Made by a program: the position numbers and the translations under genes. The notes under the pieces were generated by a model. The model saw only the letters and a program-made list of their open reading frames with translations. It searched no databases and was not told where the DNA came from. From NCBI RefSeq assembly GCF_964213995.1, contig NW_027590134.1, forward strand, positions 868,001-932,000: 64,000 bases of DNA. Reading direction: 5' to 3'. Below, one piece after another: positions 8,401 through 53,976 of this stretch; the stretch's first letter is position 1; every line of letters starts with the position of its first letter. The stretch comes from Mustelus asterias (taxonomy: Eukaryota).

Positions 8401-8551
8401 TAAGAGTTTTAACAACACCAGGTTAAAGTCCAACAGGTTTATTTGGTAGCAAATGCCATTTGCTACCAGATAAACCTGTTGGACTTTAACCTGGTGTTGT
8501 TAAAATTCTGACTGTGTTTACCTCAGTCCAACACCGGCATCTCCACATCAT
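8401..8551 (+). mobile_element. Penelope-like relic (hairpin plus tail, hammerhead core absent) inserted in CR1-A ORF2
   Basis: Inverted arms, the same tail as 3326-3525, and TSD GACCTCCCCTG/GACGTCCCCTG (8390-8400, 8552-8562). Confidence 0.75.
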
Positions 8552-9765
8552 GACGTCCCCTGTTGCCAGTGAGGATACAAAGATTTCCCTCAAGTCCCCA
8601 GCAATTTCCTCCCTTGCCTCTCTCAGTATTTTGGGGTATACCCCATCAGGCCCTAGGGACTTGTCTACCTTAATGTTTCTCAAGAACCTCAATACCTCCT
8701 CCTTTTTGATATCAACATGGCTCAAACTATCTACACATCCTTTCCCAGACTCATCACCCACCAAGTCCTTATCTTTGGTGAATACTGATGCAAAGTACTC
8801 ATTTAATATCTCACCCATTTGCTCTGGTTCCATGCATAGATTCCCTCCCTTGTCCTTGAGTGGGCCCACCCTCTCCCTGGCTACCCTCTTGCTCTTGACA
8901 TATGTATAAAAAGCCTTGGGATTTTCCTTAATCCTGCTGGCCAATGCTTTTTCGTGACCCCTTTTAGCCCTCCTTACTCCTTGCTTAAGTTTCTTTCTAA
9001 CTTTCCTTGTATTCTACACTTGCTTCGTGTGTTCCCGGCCTCCTAGCTTTGACAAATGCTTCCTTTTTCTCTTTGACTCGGCTCACAATATCTCTCGTTA
9101 TCCAAGGTTCCCAAAACTTGCCATACTTATCCTTCATCCTTACAGGAATGTGCTGGTCCTGAATCCCTATCAACTTACATTTGAAAGCCTCCCACATGCC
9201 AGATGTTGATTTGCCCTCAAACATCTTCCCCCAATCTACATTCTTCTGTTCCTGCCTAATATTGTTGTAATTAGTCTTCCCCCAATTTAGCACCTTAACT
9301 TGAGGACTACACTTATCTTTATCCACCAGTACCTTAAAGCTTACTGGATTGTGGTCACTGTTCCCGAACTGCTCCCCGACTGAAACATCGACCACCTGGC
9401 TTGGCTCATTCCTCAATACCAGGTCCAGTATGGCCCCTTCCCTAGTTGGACTATCTACATATTGTTTCAAGAAGCCCTCCTGGATGCTCCTCACAAACTC
9501 TGCCCCATCCACGCCCCTAGCATTAAGTGAGTCCCAATCAATATAGGGGAAGTTAAAATCTCCCACCACAACAACCCTGTTACTTTTATACCTTGCCAAA
9601 ATCTGCCAACATATCTGTTCCTCTATCTCCCGCTGGCGTTGGGTGGCCAATAGTAAACCCCCAACATTATGACTACACCTTTCCTATTCCTGAGCTCTAC
9701 CCATATTGCCTCGCTGTATGAGCCCTCTGAGGTGACCTCCCGGAGTACAGCTGTGATATTCTCCT

Positions 9766-11897
9766 CATACTCACCTGATGAACAAAGAACAATACAGCAC
9801 AGCAACAGACCCTTCGGCCCTCCAAGCCTGCCCCGATCATGTGTTCCTAATTAGACCATCCGTTTGTATCCCTCTATTCCCAGTCTGTTCATATTTCTAT
9901 GAACAGACTGGGAATAGAGGGATATTTCTATGAACAGACTGGGAATAGAGGGATACAAACGGATGGTCTAGTTCGGAACACATGATCGGGGCAGGCTTGG
10001 AGGGCTGAAGGGTCTGTTGCTGTGCTGTATTGTTCTTTGTTCATCAGGTGAGTATGAGGAGAATATCCATGTTCATGTGGCTATCTAGATAAGTCTTAAA
10101 TTATCCCAGCGTGTCTGCCTCAACCACCTTGCTTGGCAGTGCATTCCAGGCCCCCACCACCCTCTGTGTAAAATACGTCCCCCGCATATCTGTATTGAAC
10201 CTTGCCCCCTTGAAACTTGTGACCCCTTGTGTTTGTCATTTCTAAACTGGGAAAAAGCTTCCAACTGTTCACCCTATCTATGCCCTTCATAATTTTATAA
10301 ACCTCTATTAGGTCGCCCCTCAACCTCCGTCTTTCCAGGGAGAACAACCCTAGTTTACTCAATCTCGCCTCATATCTAATACCCTCCATACCAGGCAACG
10401 TCCTGGTAAGCCTTTTCTGCACTCTCTCCAAAGCCTCCACGTCCTTCTGGTAGTGTGGCGACCAGAACTGGACGCAGTATTCCAAATGTGGCCTAACCAA
10501 CGTTCTATATAACTGCAACATCATATGCCAACTTTTATACTCTATGCCCCGTCCAATAAAGGCAAGCATGCCATATGCCTTCTTCACCACCTTTTCCAAC
10601 TGTGCTGCCACCTTTAAGGATCTGTGGACTTGCACACCCAGATCCCTCTGCGTGTCTATACTCCTGATGGGTCTGCCATTTATTGTATAGCTCCCCACTG
10701 CATTAGATCTACCAAAATGCATCACTTCTCATTTATCTGGATTAAATTCCATCTGCCATTTCTCTGTCCAATTTTCCAGCCTATCTATATCCTGCTGTAT
10801 TCTCTGACAATGTTCATCACTATCCGCAACTCCAGCAGTCTTTGTGTCGTCCGCAAACTTACTAATCAGACCAGCTACATCTTCCAAATCATTTATATAT
10901 ATCACAAACAGCAGAGGTCCCAGTACAGAGCCCTGCGCAACACCACTAGTCACAAACCTCCAATCAGAAAAAGACCCCTCCACTGCTACCCTCTGTCTTC
11001 TATGGCCAAGCCAGTTCTGTACCCATCTAGCTAGTTCACCTTTGATCCCATGAGATTTAATCTTTTGCACCAGTCTGCCATGAGGGACCTTGTCAAATGC
11101 TTTACTAAAATCCATGGAGACGACATCCACGGCCCTTTCCTTGTCTATCATTTTTGTCACCTCCTCAAAAAACTCAACCAAATTTGTGAGGCATGACCTC
11201 CCTCATACAAAACCATGTTGTCTATCGCTAATGAGACTATTCAGTTCTAAACGTGTATAGATTCTATCTCTAAGAATCTTCTCCAACAATTTCCCTACCA
11301 CGGACGTCAAGCTCACTGGCCTATAATTACCCCGGTTATCCTTGCTACCCTTCTTAAATAACAGGACCACATTTGCTATCCTCCAATCCTCTGGGACCTC
11401 ACCTGTGTCCAATGAAGAAACAAAGATTTCTGTTAGAGGCCCAGCAATTTCATCTCTTGTCTCTCTCACTAATCTAGGACAGATGCCATCTGGCCCTGGG
11501 GATTTGTCTACCTTTATGCTTCCTAAAACACCTCACACTTCCTCCCTTGTAATTGCGATTTGTTCTAACGGGTCTACAGATCCCTCTGAGACACTACCAA
11601 TCAACGTGTCTGTCTTCTTTGTGAATACTGATGCAAAGTATTCATTTAGGATCTCACCTACTTCCTTGGGTTCTAAGCATAATTCCCTTCCTTTGTTCTT
11701 GAGAGGTCCGACTCTTTCTCTGACAACCCTCTTGTTCCTAACATATGTATAAAATGCCTTGGGATTCTCCTTAATGAAGGGGCAGCGCTCCGAACCTAGT
11801 GGCTTGTGCTACCAAATAAACCTGTTTGACTTTAACCTGGTGTTGTGAGACTTCTTACTGTGTTTATCCCAGTCCAACGCCGGCATCTCCACATCAT
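9766..11897 (+). mobile_element. Penelope-like relic split by CR1-B (pieces at 9766-9782 and 11775-11897)
   Basis: Joining CTCACCTGATGAA to (TGAA)GGGGCAGCGCTCCGAA restores the hammerhead; outer TSD ATATTCTCCT (9756-9765, 11896-11905). Confidence 0.7.
9783..11773 (-). mobile_element. 5'-truncated CR1 (CR1-B)
   Basis: RT ORFs 10120-10725, 10729-11181 and 11203-11469; gaacaaa-type tail; apparent TSD ATGAA (9778-9782, 11774-11778). Confidence 0.85.
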
Positions 11898-22229: not shown

Positions 22230-24945
22230 CATAAGAACATAAGAATATAAGAAATAGGAGCAGGAGTAGGCCATCTAGCCCCTCGAGCCTGCCCCGCCAT
22301 TCAATAAGATCATGGCTGATCTGACGTGGATCAGTACCACTTACCCGCCTGATCCCCATAACCCTTAATTCCCTTACCGATCAGGAATCCATCCATCCGC
22401 GCTTTAAACATATTCAGCGAGGTAGCCTCCACCACCTCAGTGGGCAGAGAATTCCAGAGATTCACCACCTTCTGGGAGAAGAAGTTCCTCCTCAACTCTG
22501 TCTTAAACCGACCCCCCTTTATTTTGAGGCTGTGTCCTCTAGTTTTATCTTCCTTACTAAGTGGAAAGAATCTCTCCGCCTCCACCCTATCCAGCCCCCG
22601 CATTATCTTATAAGTCTCCATAAGATCCCCCCTCATCCTTCTAAACTCCAACGAGTACAAACCCAATCTCCTCAGCCTCTCCTCATAATCCAAACCCCTC
22701 ATCTCTGGTATCAACCTGGTGAACCTTCTCTGCACTCCCTCCAATGCCAATATATCCTTCCTCATATAAGGGGACCAATACTGCACACAGTATTCCAGCT
22801 GCGGCCTCACCAATGCCCTGTACAGGTGCATCAAGACATCCCTGCTTTTATATTCTATCCCCTTCACAATATAGGCCAACATCCCATTTGCCTTCTTGAT
22901 CACCTGTTGTACCTGCAGACTGGGCTTTTGCGTCTCATGCACAAGGACCCCCAGGTCCCTTTGCACGGTAGCATGTTTTAATTTGTTTCCATTGAGATAA
23001 TAATCCCATTTGTTATTATTTCCTCCAAAGTGTATAACCTCGCATTTCTCAACGTTATACTCCATTTGCCATATCCTCGCCCACTCACTCAGCCTGTCCA
23101 AATCTCTCTGCAGATCTTCTCCGTCCTCCACACGATTCACTTTTCCACTTATCTTTGTGTCGTCTGCAAACTTCGTTACCCTACACTCCGTCCCCTCCTC
23201 CAGATCATCTATATAAATGGTAAACAGTTGCGGCCCGAGTACCGATCCCTGCGGCACGCCACTAGTTACCTTCCTCCAACCGGAAAAACACCCATTTATT
23301 CCGACTCTTTGCTTCCAGTCGGATAGCCAGTCCCCAATCCACTTTAACACACTACCCCCAACTCCGTGTGCCCTAATCTTCTTCAGCAGCCTTTTATGGG
23401 GCACCTTATCAAACGCCTTTTGGAAATCCAAAAACACCGCATCCACCGGTTCTCCTCCATCAACCGCCCTAGTCACATCTTCATAAAAATCCAACATGTT
23501 CGTCAAGCACGACTTTCCCCTCATGAATCCATGCTGCGTCTGATTGATCGAGCCATTTCTATCCAGATGCCCTGCTATCTCCTCTTTAATAATGGATTCC
23601 AGCATTTTCCCTACTACAGATGTTAAGCTGACCGGCCTATAGTTACCCGCCTTTTGTCTCCTTCCTTTTTTAAACAGCGGCATAACATTAGCCGTTTTCC
23701 AATCAACCGGCACTACCCCAGAATGCAACGAGTTTTGATAAATAATCACTAACGCATCCACTATTACCTCTGACATTTCTTTCAATACCCTGGGATGCAT
23801 TCCATCCGGACCCGGGGACTTGTCCACCTTCAGTCCCATTAGTCTACCCAGCACTGCCTCTCTGGTAACATTAATTGTATTAAGTATTTCTCCTGCTGCC
23901 AACCCTCTATCGTTAATATTTGGCAAACTATTTGTGTCCTCCACCGTGAAGACCGACACAAAAAACTTATTTAAAGACTCAGCCATATCCTCATTTCCCA
24001 CTATTAACTCCCCCCTCTCGTCCTCCAAGGGTCCAACATTCACTCTAGCCACTCTATTCCTTTTTACATATTTATAAAAACTTTTACTATCATTTTTTAT
24101 ATTAATTGCTAGCCTAGCTTAATAGTCTATCCTTCCTTTCTTTATCGCTTTCTTAGTCTCTCTTTGTTGTTTCTTAAATTTTTCCCAATCACTTGTTTCT
24201 CCACTTTTTTTGGCCACTCTGTACGCAGCTGTTTTTATTTTAATACTCTCCTTTATTTCCTTCGTTATCCACGGCTGGTTCTCCCTTTTCTTACAATCCT
24301 TGTTTTTTGCTGGAATATATTTTTGCTGAGAACTGAAAAAGATCTCCTTAAAAATCCTCCACTGTTCCTCAGCTATCCTACCTGCCAGCCTGCTCTCCCA
24401 GTCTACCTTAGCCAATTCATCCCTCATCCTATCATATTTCCCTCTGTTCAAACAGAGGACACTGGTTTGGGACCAAACTTTCTCCTCTTCCATCTGAATC
24501 AGAAATTCGACCATATTGTGGTCACTAGACCCAAGAGGGTCCTTCACAATAATATCCGTAATTCTACCTACCTCGTTACACAATACCAGATCCAAAATAG
24601 CTCGTTCCCTCGTCGGTTCCGTAACATGCTGTTCAAGGAAACTATCCCGACAGCATTCTAAGAACTCTTCCTCCATTCCACCCTTACCAACTTGAGTCTG
24701 CCAGTCAATGTGCATGTTGAAGTCCCCCATGATTATTGCCGTTCCGTTTTTACACGCATCCCTTATCTGCTTGTTTATAGCCCTCCCTACCTCAACATTA
24801 TTATTTGGGGGCCTATATACCACACCTACTAGTGTCTTTCTCCCTCTACTATTCCTCATCTCTACCCATAATGATTCCACGTTTTGTTCCTCAGAGCCTA
24901 TGTCATCCCTCAGTACTACCCTGATATTATCTCTTATTAATAGTG
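22230..24945 (-). mobile_element. Young 5'-truncated CR1 with ORF2 (EN part plus RT) broken by one stop
   Basis: ORFs 24119-24880 and 22331-24052 are in the same frame; (ataagaac)n tail at about 22230-22255. Confidence 0.93.
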
Positions 24946-24999
24946 TGAGACAGTAACACTGGTGGCTAAATACCGCATTGCAGCCTAATTTTTAATCGA

Positions 25000-25260
25000 A
25001 TCCCTGCAGTGCAGAAGGAGGCCAATCGTCCCATCGAGTCTGAACCGACCTCAATCCCACCCAGTCCGGATCCCCATTACCCTATTTATTGACCGGACAC
25101 TCCGGTGCAATTTAGCATGGCCAATCAACCTGACAGGCACTTTGGTGTGCGGGAGGAAACCGGAGCACCCGGAGGAAGCCCGGGGAGAATGTGCAAACTC
25201 CACACAGACAGAGACCTCAGCCGGGAATCGAACCCAGGTGCCTGGCGCTCTGAGACGGCA
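25000..25260 (-). mobile_element. tRNA-derived SINE
   Basis: GGTTCGATTCCC B-box and SINE core on the minus strand. Confidence 0.7.
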
Positions 25261-25279
25261 ATTCTTAGCCAAAAATCAA

Positions 25280-25362
25280 TGTCAGGAGTGGGATTTGAAC
25301 CCACGCCTCCAGAGGAGACTGCGACCTGAACGCAGCGCCTTAGACCGCTCGGCCATCCTGAC
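25280..25362 (-). tRNA. tRNA-Leu(CAG)
   Basis: 83 nt: GTCAGGATGGCCGAGCGGTCTAAGGCGCTGCGTTCAGGTCGCAGTCTCCTCTGGAGGCGTGGGTTCAAATCCCACTCCTGACA, followed by a T5 terminator. Confidence 0.93.
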
Positions 25363-25893
25363 TCCCTTAATTTTAACACAGGAAATTGCCCCAAACAGCT
25401 TCAATAAAGTGTTTGCAAACAGCGAGAAGCAGATGTGTGTGAGGATGTTCCGGAGGAAGATTCTTGCTATAGAATCGACTGTGTTTAGGTCGGAATATTA
25501 CTGACTGGGAATTATTACGGGACCAGGTTTAAAAACACAAAAGAACAAAGTCACGATCCGAAACGTTAACTCTGTCTCTCTCTTCACAAAAGCTGCCGGA
25601 GCTGCTAATTAGTTGCAGCATTTTCTGTTTTGATTCCATATTTCAAAGCTCCGGGTTTGTAGAAACTCTTGTGTGTGAAGGGCGGCTCTGGAAGGGTTTG
25701 TGTGGGGAGCTGTGTTTCGCTTCCATTGTTAATAAACGGGTTGAAATTGGCGGTTGCAGAAACTGGAGGTGGAGCTGAAAGATCACGGGCCGTTCTGTGT
25801 GTGTGTGTCAGTCCGGCTCTCTCCTCCCTCCCGCTCTGTGTTTGATCTTCACTCTGTCTCCTCCCCTCTCTGCTCTCACTCCGCCTTTCTCAG

Positions 25894-25918
25894 TCAGGTC
25901 GGGGCGGGCTGTATAAAA
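25894..25918 (+). promoter_or_regulatory. H4 promoter
   Basis: TCAGGTC (H4 site II-like), GC box GGGGCGGG and TATAAAA at 25912-25918. Confidence 0.7.
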
Positions 25919-25965
25919 GGAGCCTGAAAGAGTTCCTCTCCCATATTGTGCAGTGATCTGAGTGA

Positions 25966-26286
<321 letters not shown>

Positions 26287-26320
26287 ACAACTGGAACCTT
26301 CCTACCGAACACACAACAAA

Positions 26321-26360
26321 GGCTCTTTTCAGAGCCACTCACCGCCTCACAGAGAGAGCA
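26321..26360 (+). terminator. Histone 3' stem-loop and HDE (H4)
   Basis: GGCTCTTTTCAGAGCC at 26321-26336; purine-rich AGAGAGAGC downstream. Confidence 0.92.
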
Positions 26361-27514
26361 TTGACCTGGGGACGGGGGCTGGGATAGGCTGTTCAGTACT
26401 TGAGATGCATGTTTGTTTTGTTTAGGTTACAGTGCGGGAATCACCGAATTTAACATTTCATTTGGAGCAGCGATGCGGATTGTTTTTGAAATTTTTAAGT
26501 GGATTGTCTGAGCAGCCCCCAGTTGACATGTGCCCTCAGTGAAACGCCGCATCACTCCTGTTTAATCACCCAGTGTTTGGATAGAGTTTATCAAAGCTTT
26601 CTCTGGAATAGCGGAGTTTAGTAGCAGCAGCCGGTGAATCGTTCACTGGAATCAGTCCCAGTTGTGATGCTATTTGCCCCAGACGGTTGTTTCCTGCACT
26701 GAAACTGACGCTTTGTGAAACTGATCAGTTTCCGCTCAGTCATTCACAAACCCGCAATTCCCGCAGTTTGAGCCGCTCCAACCCCAGCCTGCTTCTGATT
26801 GGCCATCCTCTCCGCATTCGCAGCTCTGAACCAATCGCAGAGCATCGAATGTGAACATTGAGCCAATCATTGGCTTCAACTGTCAACCAGCAGAAATTTT
26901 GAATTGGGGAAATGCCGCCAATTTCAGCGCGGGAAAGGGAATTGAGACAAATTCTTAACTTATTAAAAATAGATTCTCAATTAATATTCTGCTGTAAGAT
27001 TATTTTACAAAGAGGTTTCATTTGTGAACATTTGTCCGCCACGGGCAGCAAACGGCTCTATTCAGTAATGTCAAACGGGACAAATATGAAGTCACTCTCT
27101 GTAACAAACAACAGACTCAACCCCTTTCACACCGGCTTCAGGGAGACAGAGAAGCGACTGATTTCTGATCCTTTCCCCCGAAAACGGCGGCGAATGTTAC
27201 AAGCGACAGGAGAGGGGAAATCTGAATGGGCTGGAGAGGAAAGGGACAGGGATCGAGTGGAACAGCGTGAGATTCTGGGAATGAACAGCTCAGAGAGCGG
27301 GAAAAGGGTCTAAAGCACTAAGTGGGGGGAGATAGACTTCAAATCTTCAATGTTTCTGGGAATTATCTTATTAAGGACGGAATGAAGACTTATTTTATAC
27401 AAACGGTTATTTCCTGCACAGAAAACGGCGGAATTTCTGAAAGGGGCGGTTAAGAAAACAACTGAACCAATCAGAACCTGAGGTACAGACATTAATTCGC
27501 TGGTCAGAGTTTGA

Positions 27515-28048
<534 letters not shown>

Positions 28049-28077
28049 ACCCCGACCTCAGCACCAAGAACAACAAC

Positions 28078-28118
28078 GGCTCTTTTAAGAGCCACCAAAT
28101 CGGCAAATGAAAGAGCTG
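28078..28118 (+). terminator. Histone 3' stem-loop and HDE (H3)
   Basis: GGCTCTTTTAAGAGCC at 28078-28093; AAAGAGCTG at 28110-28118. Confidence 0.92.
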
Positions 28119-28760
28119 CGATCTCCTGTTAACGATTCTAGTGTTTGAATTCCCAGGACAGAATATTCCCAGGACTCTAGTACTGACACCTCTCAATGTT
28201 ACAATTAACCCTCCGTTGCATTGGGGTCACTCATATCTCCAATCCTTTGATGGTTCGAGTAAAAACGATGCCGTTAACAATTCTACCACAATTTAATTTT
28301 AAAAGTAGTTTTATTAAACCTGCGATCATTTCAGTTTCCGAGCCATTATTCCGCAAATCCACTTTCTCCGCACGTGTTTCGAGTCGCAGCGAGAGTGTTG
28401 AAAATTGTGTCAATGACGTTCAGAATATGAAGCATGTCTCCAACAGTAACCCACTCACACAGATATAGCCATTGCAGGAACGCTTGCACATTCACATAGA
28501 CAATAATTAACACTTTTCCAGATCCAGTGACTGACTTTGAAAACCGATGGGCTGCAGATGAATATCCTCGCAGATGATCACATTTTAAAGCAATTATATT
28601 TGAAATAGGATCAATTCACTTCACTGGGATGGTTTCCCCGATAAACAACAGCAACCTGCATTAAAATACTGTATGTGTCAATAGTACGGATTGATAGAAC
28701 AAAGCGGGAAACAGCTGTGCTGTGAATAGCAGTGCAGAAACTGACCGATAGACACCAGGT

Positions 28761-28800
28761 CGCCCTTTTTCAGATAAAGTGAGTGGCTCTGAAAAGAGCC
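28761..28800 (-). terminator. Histone 3' stem-loop and HDE (H2A)
   Basis: Minus-strand GGCTCTTTTCAGAGCC at 28785-28800, followed by GAAAAAGGGCG. Confidence 0.9.
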
Positions 28801-28830
28801 TTTGGGTTATCAGATTAAAGAATGGGCGCT

Positions 28831-29537
<707 letters not shown>

Positions 29538-41659: not shown

Positions 41660-42005
41660 GAATTAATGGTGGAGTGGTATTGTCACTGGACCATGATCCG
41701 GAGTAATGCAATGGGACCTGAATATCACCACAACAGAGTGACATTTGAGCTCAATAAACATCTGGAAATAAAGGTCTAATGATGGCCATGTCGTAAAAAC
41801 CCACTTGATTCACTGATGTCCCTTTCGACAAGCAAATCTGCCCACATGACCTCTTCTGGCCTACATGTGACTCCAGACACACAGCAATGTGTTTGACTCT
41901 TAAATGCCCTCTGAAATGGCCTAACAAGCCGCTCAGTTCAAAGGTAATTAGTGCAATGAATGCTGGCCAAGCCAGTGACGCACACATCACATGAATGAAT
42001 AAAAA
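41660..42005 (+). mobile_element. Deu-domain SINE (SacSINE1-like); second copy at about 48940-49265
   Basis: ttcactgatgtccctt...tggcctacatgtgactccagac...cagcaatgtgtttgactcttaaatgccctctg, with a catgaatgaat tail. Confidence 0.65.
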
Positions 42006-42374
42006 TAATTCTCTGCGCCCCAGAAAGCGCTCTATCCAACACACTGACTTGCCCAGGCACTGAGAGTGGGCATGCTCCCCAGGGGCAGCCGCGGGGCAAT
42101 CGGTGCTGGAACTTTCCCCACTGCCACTTGTCTCCCATTCCACCAAGCTGCCTGTGTCCTTTTGAAGTTTCCCACTTTCCTCCTCACAGTTGCCAATGCC
42201 TCCAAGTTTGCTGGCGTGTGGAAATGTTGAGCTTGTGTCCTGTACACCAATGTGTGTGTCATTAATATATATCAGGAAGAGCAGGGCTCCTAACACCGAG
42301 CCCTGGGGAACTCCACTGGAAACCTTCCTCCAGTCTGAAAAACAACCATTAACCACTGCTCTCTGTTTCCTCTC

Positions 42375-42960
42375 TGTGGTGAACCATCGTTGGTTCCCAC
42401 TGGATAGTACTGAGCCAGGGGCTGGCCAGTACTACAAGGATGTACATATGTTACTGTTGGGTTGTGCTATTGTTGCTGTTGGGGTTAGGGTGGGGTTGTT
42501 ACACCTTTGTACTGTAGTGTTGTGGCACATCCCAGTCGGGCTCCGCCTCCTGGGAGAGGTATAAGAGTCCCTGCTCTGGCCGGGACCCCTTCAGTCTGGG
42601 ATAGTGTATATAAGTTCTGGGAGCTTCGTTACAGTAAATAAAAGCCTTTCATTTACTGAGCTTCAGGCCTCGTGTTTGAGTAGCGCATCAATTTTATTTA
42701 CTGTAACGAAGCTGCCAGAACTTATATACACTATCCCAGACTGAAGGGGTCCCGGCCAGAGCAGGGACTCTTATACCTCTACCAGGAGGCGGAGCCCGAC
42801 TGGGATGTGCCACAACACTACAGTACATAGGTGTAACAACCCCACCCTAACCCCAACAGCAACAATAGCACAACCCAACAGTAACATATGTACATCCTTG
42901 TAGTACTGGCCAGCCCCTGGCTCAGCACTATCCAGTGGGAACCAACGATGGTTCACCACA
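42375..42960. mobile_element. Palindromic LTR-derived element: LTR 42375-42690 (TG...CA) followed by an inverted copy
   Basis: 269-bp arms (42375-42643 and 42692-42960) with about 4 mismatches; TATATAA at 42607; AATAAA at about 42637; TSD CTCTC. Inserted at the edge of a CR1 fragment (about 42125-42374). Confidence 0.85.
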
Positions 42961-42984
42961 CTCTCACTCACACTATTCCATATG

Positions 42985-43260
42985 GGGCGGTGAGGATGGC
43001 CTCGCTGCACCATCCGCTTCATGGTGCCGCGCCGCCGGCTCCCTCGCCGCACGTCTGCCGAGCCCGGCGGCTCTGATTCGGGCTCTGAGAGCCGCTGAGA
43101 CTCTCCGCTGTTGCGCCTGCACAGTTCCGCTCAGCTCAGCTTCCGGGAGCTGCTACGCGCAGACAGGCGGCCTCCGGGGCGGAGCATCCCGACGCCTGCG
43201 CAGTGCGGATCATTCTGAATGATATATATCGTATTCACGCTCGCGGCGCATCTTGGGTTA
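42985..43260. promoter_or_regulatory. CpG island / promoter-like region
   Basis: CpG-dense; NRF1-like CGCCTGCGCA (about 43193-43202) and GCGCCTGCACA; GGGGCGG box. Confidence 0.55.
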
Positions 43261-43732
43261 CGCTGCCCACCATTTCATGGAATAATACAGCATATGGGGT
43301 TATATTTAAACCCACCGGAATTCTGCCAGAGATTTCGTAGCGAATCCGTCCCATTTCCTCTTTATGCCCTAAAATTCGCCCTTTAAAACGGTTTTTCTCC
43401 AACTGCTCTTTGAAAAAATTTTGCATCAGATTCCCAGTTTTTAGACAGCGTATTCAGGATTCACAGAAACTAGCTACCTATGTAAGTAAACATGTGTTTG
43501 CTCACAATCTCTTTACTTTTTTAACAAATCATAATGAATCAGTGTCCTCATGTAACAGGAACAATTTATGCCAATTTACTCTATTAAAGCTGTCCATGAT
43601 TTTGAACACCTCCATGAAAACTCCTGTTAACGTGCCTGCCGACATCAAAAGCTATGAATGCTGGAAGTACAAACTTAATTTTGAAAATCTGGATGTACAC
43701 AACAAGTATGCACCTGCGGGGGTAAATAGTGA

Positions 43733-44868
43733 TGATGTGGAGATGCCGGCGTTGGACTGGGGTAAACACAGTAAGAAGTTTAACAACACCAGGTTAAAGT
43801 CCAACAGGTTTATTTGGTAGCAAAAGCCACACAAGCTTTCGAGGCTCTGAGCCCCTTCTTCAGGTGAGTGGGAATTCTGTTCACAAACAGAACTTATAAG
43901 ACACAGACTCAATTTACATGAATAATGGTTGGAATGCGAATACTTACAACTAATCCAGTCTTTAAGAAACAAAACAATGGGAGTGGAGAGAGCATCAAGA
44001 CAGGCTAAAAAGATGTGTATTGTCTCCAGACAAGACAGCCAGTGAAACTCTGCAGGTCCACGCAACTGTGGGAGTTACAAATAGTGTGACATAAATTCTG
44101 ATTCTAGGATCGCATGATAAAGACTCAGGAGGAAAAAAGCAGAAATATTTATGTGAAATAGTGTGACATAAACCCAATATCCCGGTTGAGGCCGTCCTTG
44201 TGTGTGCGGAACCTGGCTATCAGTTTCTGCTCCGCGACTCTGCGCTGTCGTGTGTCGCGAAGGCCGCCTTGGAGAACGCTTACCCGAATATCAGAGGCCG
44301 AATGCCCGTGACCGCACTTCAGCGGTCACGGGCATTCGGCCTCTGATATTCGGGTAAGCGTTCTCCAAGGCGGCCTTCGCGACACACGACAGCGCAGAGT
44401 CGCGGAGCAGAAACTGATAGCCAGGTTCCGCACACACAAGGACGGCCTCAACCGGGATATTGGGTTTATGTCACACTATTTCACATAAATATTTCTGCTT
44501 TTTTCCTCCTGAGTCTTTATCATGCGATCCTAGAATCAGAATTTATGTCACACTATTTGTAACTCCCACAGTTGCGTGGACCTGCAGAGTTTCACTGGCT
44601 GTCTTGTCTGGAGACAATACACATCTTTTTAGCCTGTCTTGATGCTCTCTCCACTCCCATTGTTTTGTTTCTTAAAGACTGGATTAGTTGTAAGTATTCG
44701 CATTCCAACCATTATTCATGTAAATTGAGTCTGTGTCTTATAAGTTCTGTTTGTGAACAGAATTCCCACTCACCTGAAGAAGGGGCTCAGAGCCTCGAAA
44801 GCTTGTGTGGCTTTTGCTACCAAATAAACCTGTTGGACTTTAACCTGGTGTTGTTAAACTTCTTACTG
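43733..44868. mobile_element. Penelope-like element as a palindrome with 547-bp arms, encoding a GIY-YIG C-terminus and hammerhead motifs
   Basis: Arms 43769-44315 and 44322-44868; TSD GGTAAATAGTGA. 44315-44488 translates HFSGHGHSASDIRVSVLQGGLRDTRQRRVAEQKLIARFRTHKDGLNRDIGFMSHYFT*. Confidence 0.9.
44771..44807 (+). ncRNA. Minimal type I hammerhead ribozyme motif (mirror copy on - strand at about 43830-43866)
   Basis: CAC-CTGAAGA-AGGGGCTCAGAGCCTC-GAAA-GCTT-GTG: conserved core, stem II and short palindromic stem III. Confidence 0.65.
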
Positions 44869-45889
44869 GGTAAATAGTGACCAGGTTTAAACTTACAGAT
44901 CAACATCCTTTCATCAGCACTGGTGAAAGTTACAAATGTGAGCGAAGATTTTAAGAAAATGCTACGGAGAACGGCAGATGGCAAAAAAAAACCAAAAGGG
45001 AGGTTTGTGATTGTGTGCAACACAAGTGCATAAAATGGCAAACAGTCTAAAGGAAATAGTAAGAGTACAAGTAAAGATAGTGAGCACTGTGTCGTCAAGA
45101 GGGGTGCATGAGTTCCATTGGAGCACTAGAGAAGACCAAGGACAGAATGATCAGTGTGAGCAAAGCACAGAATTAAAATGATAGGAATTATCACAAATAG
45201 TGTGATACTTGTGGACTGAATGGAAATGTTCCACAATCTGTGCATCTGTCATCAGAATGTAGAGCAGAGTACATTGTGAGCAGCAAATACAGCACACTAC
45301 ATTTAAATGATTAGTCCAGGAGGATTCATTGAGGGGGTTTCTGATGAGGAGAAAAGAGGTAAAAGGCCTGTTGTTGCACCTTGACAGGTGCCATGGAAAG
45401 TCAAAACGACTAGTAGAAGCTGTTAGAAAAGGACTGCGGTATTCGGCGGGGAAGGAATGTTTGGTGACAGCATCACACAAGCTAGAGGTGGTAAAAATGC
45501 TGAGAGCTAATCCATTGAAAAAGTTGGTAATTTAAAGGAGGAAGCATTATCATAATATAGAGAAGATAGAGACGGGGTGAGAGCAGAGGTGTGGGACAAG
45601 AGCAGACACAGATGAGTATGCTGTCAGCCACAGAGTGGGGAGATCAGTGGCTGAGGAAAAAGGAAGAAATATCAGAATTTCTCAAATGGAAAGCTCCATT
45701 ATCAGTACGCATTGTTCAAGACCTTAATTATACGGCCAGGAGAAATATTGATGTATCTGAACGTTTTATGTTTCAATTTTGTAGAATACATTCAATGCTC
45801 ACAATGTGGTTTGCTCTGGGTTGGATAGATTGAGTGTCTGCTTTGTGAAACACCTGTCTTCAGGCAGAACAAAGATTCAAATCCAAGCT

Positions 45890-53466: not shown

Positions 53467-53507
53467 CAGCTTTTTCACAGAGATTGTGGGTGGCTCTTAA
53501 AAGAGCC
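53467..53507 (-). terminator. Histone 3' stem-loop and HDE (H2B)
   Basis: Minus-strand GGCTCTTTTAAGAGCC at 53492-53507 followed by ACCCA, then GAAAAAGCTG. Confidence 0.92.
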
Positions 53508-53544
53508 GTTGTGTTTGGGGTGTTTTTCAGTCCATGGGGGAGTT

Positions 53545-53931
53545 TTACTTGGAGCTGGTGTACTTGGTCACCGCCTTTGTCCCTTCCGACACGGCGTGCT
53601 TGGCCAGTTCTCCGGGCAGCAGCAGGCGCACGGCGGTCTGGATCTCCCGGGAGCTGATGGTGCTGCGCTTGTTGTAATGGGCCAGGCGGGAAGCCTCACC
53701 CGCGATGCGCTCGAAAATATCGTTCACGAACGAGTTCATGATGCTCATGGCCTTGGAGGAGATGCCGGTGTCGGGGTGAACCTGCTTCATCACTTTGTAG
53801 ATGTAGATGGAGTAACTCTCTTTCCTCGACCTTCGCCGCTTCTTGCCGCCCTTTGTTCCCGGTTTCTTAATCACTTTCTTCGCTCCCTTCTTGGGAGCTG
53901 GTTTCGATGTTGGTTTCTTCTCATCAGCCAT
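53545..53931 (-). CDS. H2B: Histone H2B (128 aa)
   Basis: [16 protein letters not shown]...[27 protein letters not shown]...AVTKYTSSK. Confidence 0.97.
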
Positions 53932-53976
53932 CTTCAATTTCACGCAGAAATAAAGCAAACCCCTTCCGAGCGCTGA

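Follow-up and report, generated by a model that had tools for sequence, protein, structure and literature searches.

A palindromic LTR insertion consistent with fold-back of aberrant retrotransposon cDNA

Analysis of a 64,000-nucleotide stretch of Mustelus asterias DNA (referred to here as the window) identified a 586-base palindrome comprising one LTR and a reversed copy of most of the same LTR. It is a cleanly built LTR insertion, most likely derived from the fold-back of aberrant LTR cDNA. We consider it reasonably probable that a displaced plus-strand strong-stop DNA carrying a copied self-primer folded back on itself and that integrase inserted the resulting two-U3-ended product. The features that bear on this interpretation were as follows, with positions counted from the first base of the window.

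42234 to 42374, minus strand: CR1/LINE reverse-transcriptase fragment, the insertion target (frame 41751-42431; 68 to 80% blastn identity to eight other places in the window)
42370 to 42374, plus strand: left target-site duplication CTCTC, 5 bp
42375 to 42690, plus strand: complete 316-bp LTR, TGTGGTG...GCATCA, of a high-copy family (contig depth step; independent GCATCA end)
42543 to 42595, plus strand: rival candidate promoter (GC box at 42543, TATA-like TATAAGAG at 42560, initiator-like TTCAGT with A42593; motif scan)
42607 to 42614, plus strand: consensus TATA box TATATAAG, 26 nt before A42633
42633 to 42643, plus strand: candidate self-primer segment AGTAAATAAAA, which contains AATAAA (42637-42642) and whose last base is the fold-back point
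42644 to 42691, plus strand: unpaired 48-nt loop with the rest of R, U5 with GCATCA (42685-42690), and an extra A (42691)
42692 to 42702, plus strand: TTTTATTTACT, seen at the position of a primer-binding site (PBS); putative copy of the primer or snap-back PBS
42692 to 42960, minus strand: inverted copy of LTR bases 1 to 269, ending exactly on the first base of the LTR (CCACA)
42961 to 42965, plus strand: right target-site duplication CTCTC, 5 bp, followed by five more CR1-like bases

The inverted arms (42375-42643 and 42692-42960) were each 269 nt long and 99% complementary, with 48 nt between them and four mismatches, at 42409/42926, 42507/42828, 42554/42781, and 42621/42714. An earlier note on this DNA had described an LTR-like unit at 42375-42690 that was followed, after 1 nt, by an inverted copy of 269 bp, and its coordinates and ends were found to be as claimed. 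No other copy of the palindromic element was detected in the window by blastn, and no match to Rfam was obtained within the element.

The insertion interrupted a fragment whose translation resembled other CR1 frames of the window and which we take to be a CR1 LINE; a Pfam search of this fragment gave no match. When duplication lengths of 3 to 8 bp were scanned, the two flanks matched at 3 and 5 bp only, with 5 bp being the longest, and the right flank was CTCTC rather than the reverse complement of the left flank. Two 5-mers at such a spacing match by chance at 0.27% of window positions. The proposed duplication of CTCTC on both sides was confirmed as an exact 5-bp match. The earlier note had also likened its reconstructed empty site to CR1 sequence near 16367, and this likeness held: a CR1 paralogue near 16369 (TGTTTCCTGTCACTCA versus TGTTTCCTCTC, with ACTCA at the insertion) showed one difference and carried the target 5-mer once, indicating that the empty site had a single 5-mer. 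The two insertions with a visible target, at 42375 and in a copy from sequencing run X5 (two cases only), both fell in CR1 sequence, which probably reflects the abundance of CR1.

In order to examine the LTR family, sequencing runs that contained the stretch were utilized. The stretch or part of it was present in 20 of 24 runs from 12 studies, with at least half of the words present in 6 runs, and the contigs of 4 of the 24 runs were aligned to 42290-42744 (3,872, 2,199, 42, and 1 contigs). Summed contig depth in the two large runs jumped ∼100-fold at 42370-42385, the TGTGG boundary, indicating that the family is high-copy and has its left end there. At the other end, one X5 contig matched 42631-42692 and then continued with 29 letters that matched a CR1 coding sequence present at two places in the window. 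Judged by its sequence, this contig represents an independent insertion ending at GCATCA, a boundary defined by this single contig to within 2 nt. The TG...CA unit carried TATA and AATAAA motifs, and these motifs, together with the 5-bp duplication and the recurrent GCATCA end, make an LTR the best reading of 42375-42690. The suggestion that TGTGG...GCATCA is an LTR was, accordingly, upheld by the high copy number of the family and by the recurrence of the GCATCA end in an independent copy.

Summed depth dropped 20- to 50-fold from U3 to U5. The ratio of X2 to X4 depth fell near 42560-42590, with X2 being ∼4-fold higher relative to X4 over U3 than over R-U5. Summed contig depth does not measure copy number, and both trends were left out of the argument. 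At 42690-42744, junction-spanning contigs were indistinguishable from short arm contigs in the depth values. One X2 loose end at 42505 was an adapter sequence, presumably a tagmentation adapter, and we assume that X2 may be a Tn5 library. Comparison of the arms at 16 family-variable sites detected agreement at 13 sites and differences at 42409, 42507, and 42621. Both arms shared the minority alleles at 42421 (12% of X4 depth) and 42628 (17% of X4 depth), while at 42409 they carried two different alleles, both found in the family. A shared-allele product of 8e-4 ignores linkage, omits the three mismatched sites, and is indicative only. The pattern of alleles fits one template with a few later changes or errors, although two molecules derived from one parent would also be compatible with it.

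A single A (42691) separated the LTR end from the inverted arm, which hence began at the place where a primer-binding site lies. The junction contained neither a TGG nor any other non-LTR sequence, and no match of more than 4 nt was found between it and the four tRNAs of the window. Bases 42644-42647 offer no complement to the four bases at the LTR end, and there was no microhomology at the junction. A DNA folding model gave pairing probabilities in the fold-back register of 0.00 for a strand that terminates with the LTR and of 0.05, 0.51, and 0.97 for strands extended by 10, 12, and 15 nt, respectively. As the unextended strand never folded back in this model, ∼11 or more complementary bases are predicted to have existed before extension. 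The simplest source of these bases, on this modelling, would be a primer or PBS complementary to the R segment of the element itself. The 11-nt complementarity between 42633-42643 and 42692-42702 to which the earlier note had drawn attention was present; these 11 nt are the first of the inverted arm, however, and do not constitute independent evidence. Such an 11-nt complement might mask the 5′ poly(A) signal instead of priming. Lastly, the inverted copy stopped at the first base of the LTR without copying the flank, and hence the inverted arm was most likely made on free cDNA and not in the chromosome.

For the transcription start that had been predicted near A42633, the TATA box at 42607 was as described, but a second candidate promoter pointed to A42593. 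As there are two candidate starts, a Tf1-style primer consisting of the first 11 nt of the transcript is unproven. The TATATAA motif was retained in variant loose ends while 42614-42628 varied. At 42565, within the rival promoter, the family allele A accounted for 48% of X4 depth and matched the TATA consensus. If the A42593 promoter were used, the pairing segment would be internal and would overlap the poly(A) signal, unlike the situation in Tf1. No substitution was present in 42629-42654 among the 40 rows listed out of 48; one subfamily loose end from run X5 differed at one base of the 11-mer at 42633-42643. A local 8-bp hairpin, formed by 42632-42639 and 42651-42658, could occlude part of AATAAA within the LTR alone. 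This hairpin would compete with the long-range pairing and is thus a possible candidate for a switch between polyadenylation and priming. The local hairpin fold was not above shuffled controls. The 48-nt loop alone gave a z value of −0.25. A z value of −2.07 was obtained for 42633-42702, which includes the circular, arm-derived duplex, and the part behind the PBS is absent from the element.

The proposed source is a Ty3/gypsy-type LTR retrotransposon that would prime with its own RNA and whose own integrase would insert the aberrant product. Bases 42633-42643 of the parental RNA would pair with a site 1 nt downstream of the 5′ LTR, be cut, and then prime the minus strand. The first plus-strand strong-stop DNA would, as in Ty3, copy U3-R-U5 and ∼11 to 12 nt of the primer and would then be displaced as a dead-end single strand. 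The geometry of the palindrome suggests that the 3′ end of this strand, being complementary to its own R, would snap back and that reverse transcriptase would copy U3 to the end of the molecule. Conversion of the hairpin to a linear double-stranded palindrome, the least supported step, might occur by strand-displacing re-priming or by pairing of two hairpins. The two U3 ends would then be inserted into the CR1 remnant; the TG...CA ends and the 5-bp duplication were observed directly, and integrase is the presumed agent. The general biochemistry of integrases is compatible with the integration of a molecule by two like ends. The palindromic product has no genes and is probably immobile. A fold-back strong-stop DNA inserted by integrase had been put forward previously, and the geometry favoured both fold-back of a free reverse transcription product and integrase-type insertion, but no parent with the 11-nt complement was found in the collections searched. 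The further proposal of a route to MITE-like elements was not sustained and is speculation, with one copy seen and no sign of remobilisation. It is possible but doubtful that integrated snap-back palindromes with two U3 ends arise time and again from gypsy elements that prime themselves and belong to an animal lineage outside the chromoviruses.

Searches for the parent element and for sister copies were performed on several sequence collections. Pattern scans detected 34, at least 120, 0, and 7 loci in viral contigs, 9 loci in metagenome contigs, and 0 and 2 loci in prokaryote genomes, all of which were unrelated to the family. A blastn comparison of the LTR with 163 scan loci gave no matches, and 9 later scan loci were without long direct repeats or LTR-like context. 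Peptides translated through the junction or from U3 led to no protein of the family, with no candidate in one search and none among 64 candidates in another. Eight peptide matches to long proteins, mostly consisting of several short stretches, were judged to be due to chance. No Pfam match was obtained for 88 of the 219 open frames of at least 75 amino acids in the window. The listed loose ends (18 of 318) and contig pieces (25 of 6,123) showed neither an internal region of the family nor the palindrome junction nor the flank joints of this insertion. The material listed contained no second palindromic copy, and at all three joints listed the strand stayed the same. Literature searches aimed at palindromic or fold-back LTR insertions found no described case, with most subscription journals and repeat databases being outside the scope of this search.

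The window contains a cluster of histone and tRNA genes, with five histone 3′ stem-loops and four tRNA genes (21044-28805 and 53467-53976); from their translations, we take the histone genes to be H1, H3, H2A, and H2B. A degenerate U2 copy was present at 29368-29537. Just to the right of the element, 42966-43300 was GC and CpG rich, gave no repeat match in the window, and, on its composition, could be a promoter island. A perfect palindrome with 550-bp arms (43766-44315 and 44322-44871) and a 6-nt loop was found within 43720-44884 and was flanked by a 13-bp direct repeat, GGGTAAATAGTGA. The end of this palindrome recurred near 8454-8554 and 11799-11897, and the whole looks to us like an inverted terminal-repeat form of a Penelope-like element. 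Another fold-back, at 9755-10067, had 139-bp arms of 98% identity and a 35-nt loop with a short tandem duplication and was inserted in CR1; this sequence is presumably SINE-like.

Other origins of the palindrome were weighed against the fold-back of strong-stop DNA. Two LTR cDNA ends of the same parent could have been joined at R/U5 by a template jump, recombination, or ligation in the particle and then integrated as one, with no self-primer. This explanation, which we regard as unlikely, would also yield precise TG...CA ends, a single 5-bp duplication, and near-identical arms, and it accommodates the occurrence in the family of both arm alleles of 42409; it requires, however, a jump to an internal site without microhomology and a precise landing both 1 nt past the LTR end and where the poly(A)-signal run finishes. 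It is decidedly improbable that the palindrome is a nonautonomous DNA transposon, LTR derived or not, of the MITE or Ginger/TDD-like type, moved by cut-and-paste through its 269-bp terminal inverted repeats. The description of Ginger1 in the part of PMC2836005 drawn on here does include TGTNR termini and inverted repeats of 40 to 270 bp, TDD-4/5 give 5-bp duplications, and within this high-copy family the share of palindromic copies was not separable. Against such an element stand the independent copy that ends at GCATCA with an unrelated flank, the promoter and poly(A) motifs of the unit, the lack of a second palindrome among the sequences seen, and, according to the same part of that source, metazoan Ginger duplications of 4 bp with CCGG or RTATAY targets (PMC2836005).

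An origin in the chromosome, in which a solo LTR gained its inverted duplication through a template switch during host replication or repair, was considered very improbable. The local fold-back in the short repeat at 9755-10067 and the 8-bp inverted repeat near the apex are compatible with such a switch, but there is no reason for it to have stopped exactly at the first base of the LTR with both target duplications intact. A chimera of sequencing or assembly, formed from fold-back reads, is likewise very improbable, even though three near-perfect palindromes occur in 64 kb and no contig among those listed bridged the insertion joints. The earlier note had used the mismatches between the arms as an argument against an artefact. 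All four are present in the window sequence, yet they carry less weight than was claimed, as three of the four are transversions and G42621 was present in none of the contigs, from four sequencing runs, that span that position. The intact CTCTC duplication and the defined junctions are the stronger argument: fold-back of a read would have inverted the flank as well, while here the CR1 sequence picks up again behind a precise 5-bp duplication and the two joints fall on biologically defined positions.

If the fold-back of self-primed strong-stop DNA is the true origin, the junction would be genomic evidence for a tRNA-free start of reverse transcription in a vertebrate gypsy family, and dead-end strong-stop DNA would be able to enter the germ-line genome by way of two U3 ends. 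Self-priming outside the fission yeast model would then become testable by a genome count. If such insertions recur, each would be a fossil record of the 3′ end of the primer (in this palindrome, the A that closes the poly(A)-signal run) and would provide a ready-made element with terminal inverted repeats, which bears on the origin of Ginger-like repeats from LTRs; a hairpin-RNA silencing locus directed against its own family would be a further possibility. A one-off accident without sister copies would be a curiosity.

In Schizosaccharomyces pombe, the first 11 bases of Tf1 serve, after cleavage by RNase H, as the element's own primer (PMC7175516). The palindrome resembled Tf1/Tf2 and the Tf1/sushi group in having no tRNA site at the PBS position and 11 nt complementary to its own LTR, as those elements are portrayed in portions of PMC7175516, PMC10085805, and PMC6317226. 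The complement differed from that of Tf1/sushi elements in that it is known from the fold-back product alone, where it belongs to the arm, and in that it covers AATAAA. The three-duplex RNA structure termed the pretzel is a Tf1/sushi feature, according to the pertinent part of PMC10085805. Membership of the Tf1/sushi group, as implied by the earlier note, was not supported by the ends, since TGTGGTG and CGCATCA do not match the Sushi motifs TGTYANR and CNTNACA given in Table 3 of PMC3601003. The element may nevertheless work like Tf1. In the same table, the CsRN1 clade motifs were matched at 7 of 7 positions for the 5′ end (TGTGGYG) and 5 of 7 positions for the 3′ end (MSYYAMA), with the qualification that the training set of this motif model excludes vertebrates (PMC3601003) and that 7 bases cannot assign a clade.

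According to section 2.2 of PMC5371799, the first plus-strand strong-stop DNA of Ty3 includes a copy of 12 primer nucleotides; re-priming then displaces this strand, which builds up as a dead-end product. A displaced U3-R-U5 strand with a copy of ∼12 nt of primer is exactly the precursor needed here. Ty3 differs in that it is tRNA primed and its extension is not self-complementary, and section 2.2 reports neither fold-back nor integration of this product (PMC5371799). Ginger1 and Ginger2/TDD share with the palindrome the TGTNR termini, the long inverted repeats (40 to 270 bp in Ginger1 and 269 bp here), and an integrase-type chemistry, as outlined in the section of PMC2836005 concerned. The palindrome differs from them in its 5-bp CTCTC duplication, in flanking 4-mers that are not identical, and in a target other than CCGG/CCGT or RTATAY (PMC2836005, same section); it is also without a transposase gene, and its inverted repeats are the U3-R of a recognisable LTR. 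That section describes the route from an LTR element to a DNA transposon as unclear, and the fold-back, if true, would provide a concrete way for the step from an LTR to a pair of terminal inverted repeats (PMC2836005). Finally, the palindrome resembled a solo LTR in consisting of a single whole LTR between 5-bp duplications with no internal region but differed from it in the extra inverted copy of U3-R and in its probable origin in reverse transcription rather than in LTR-LTR recombination.
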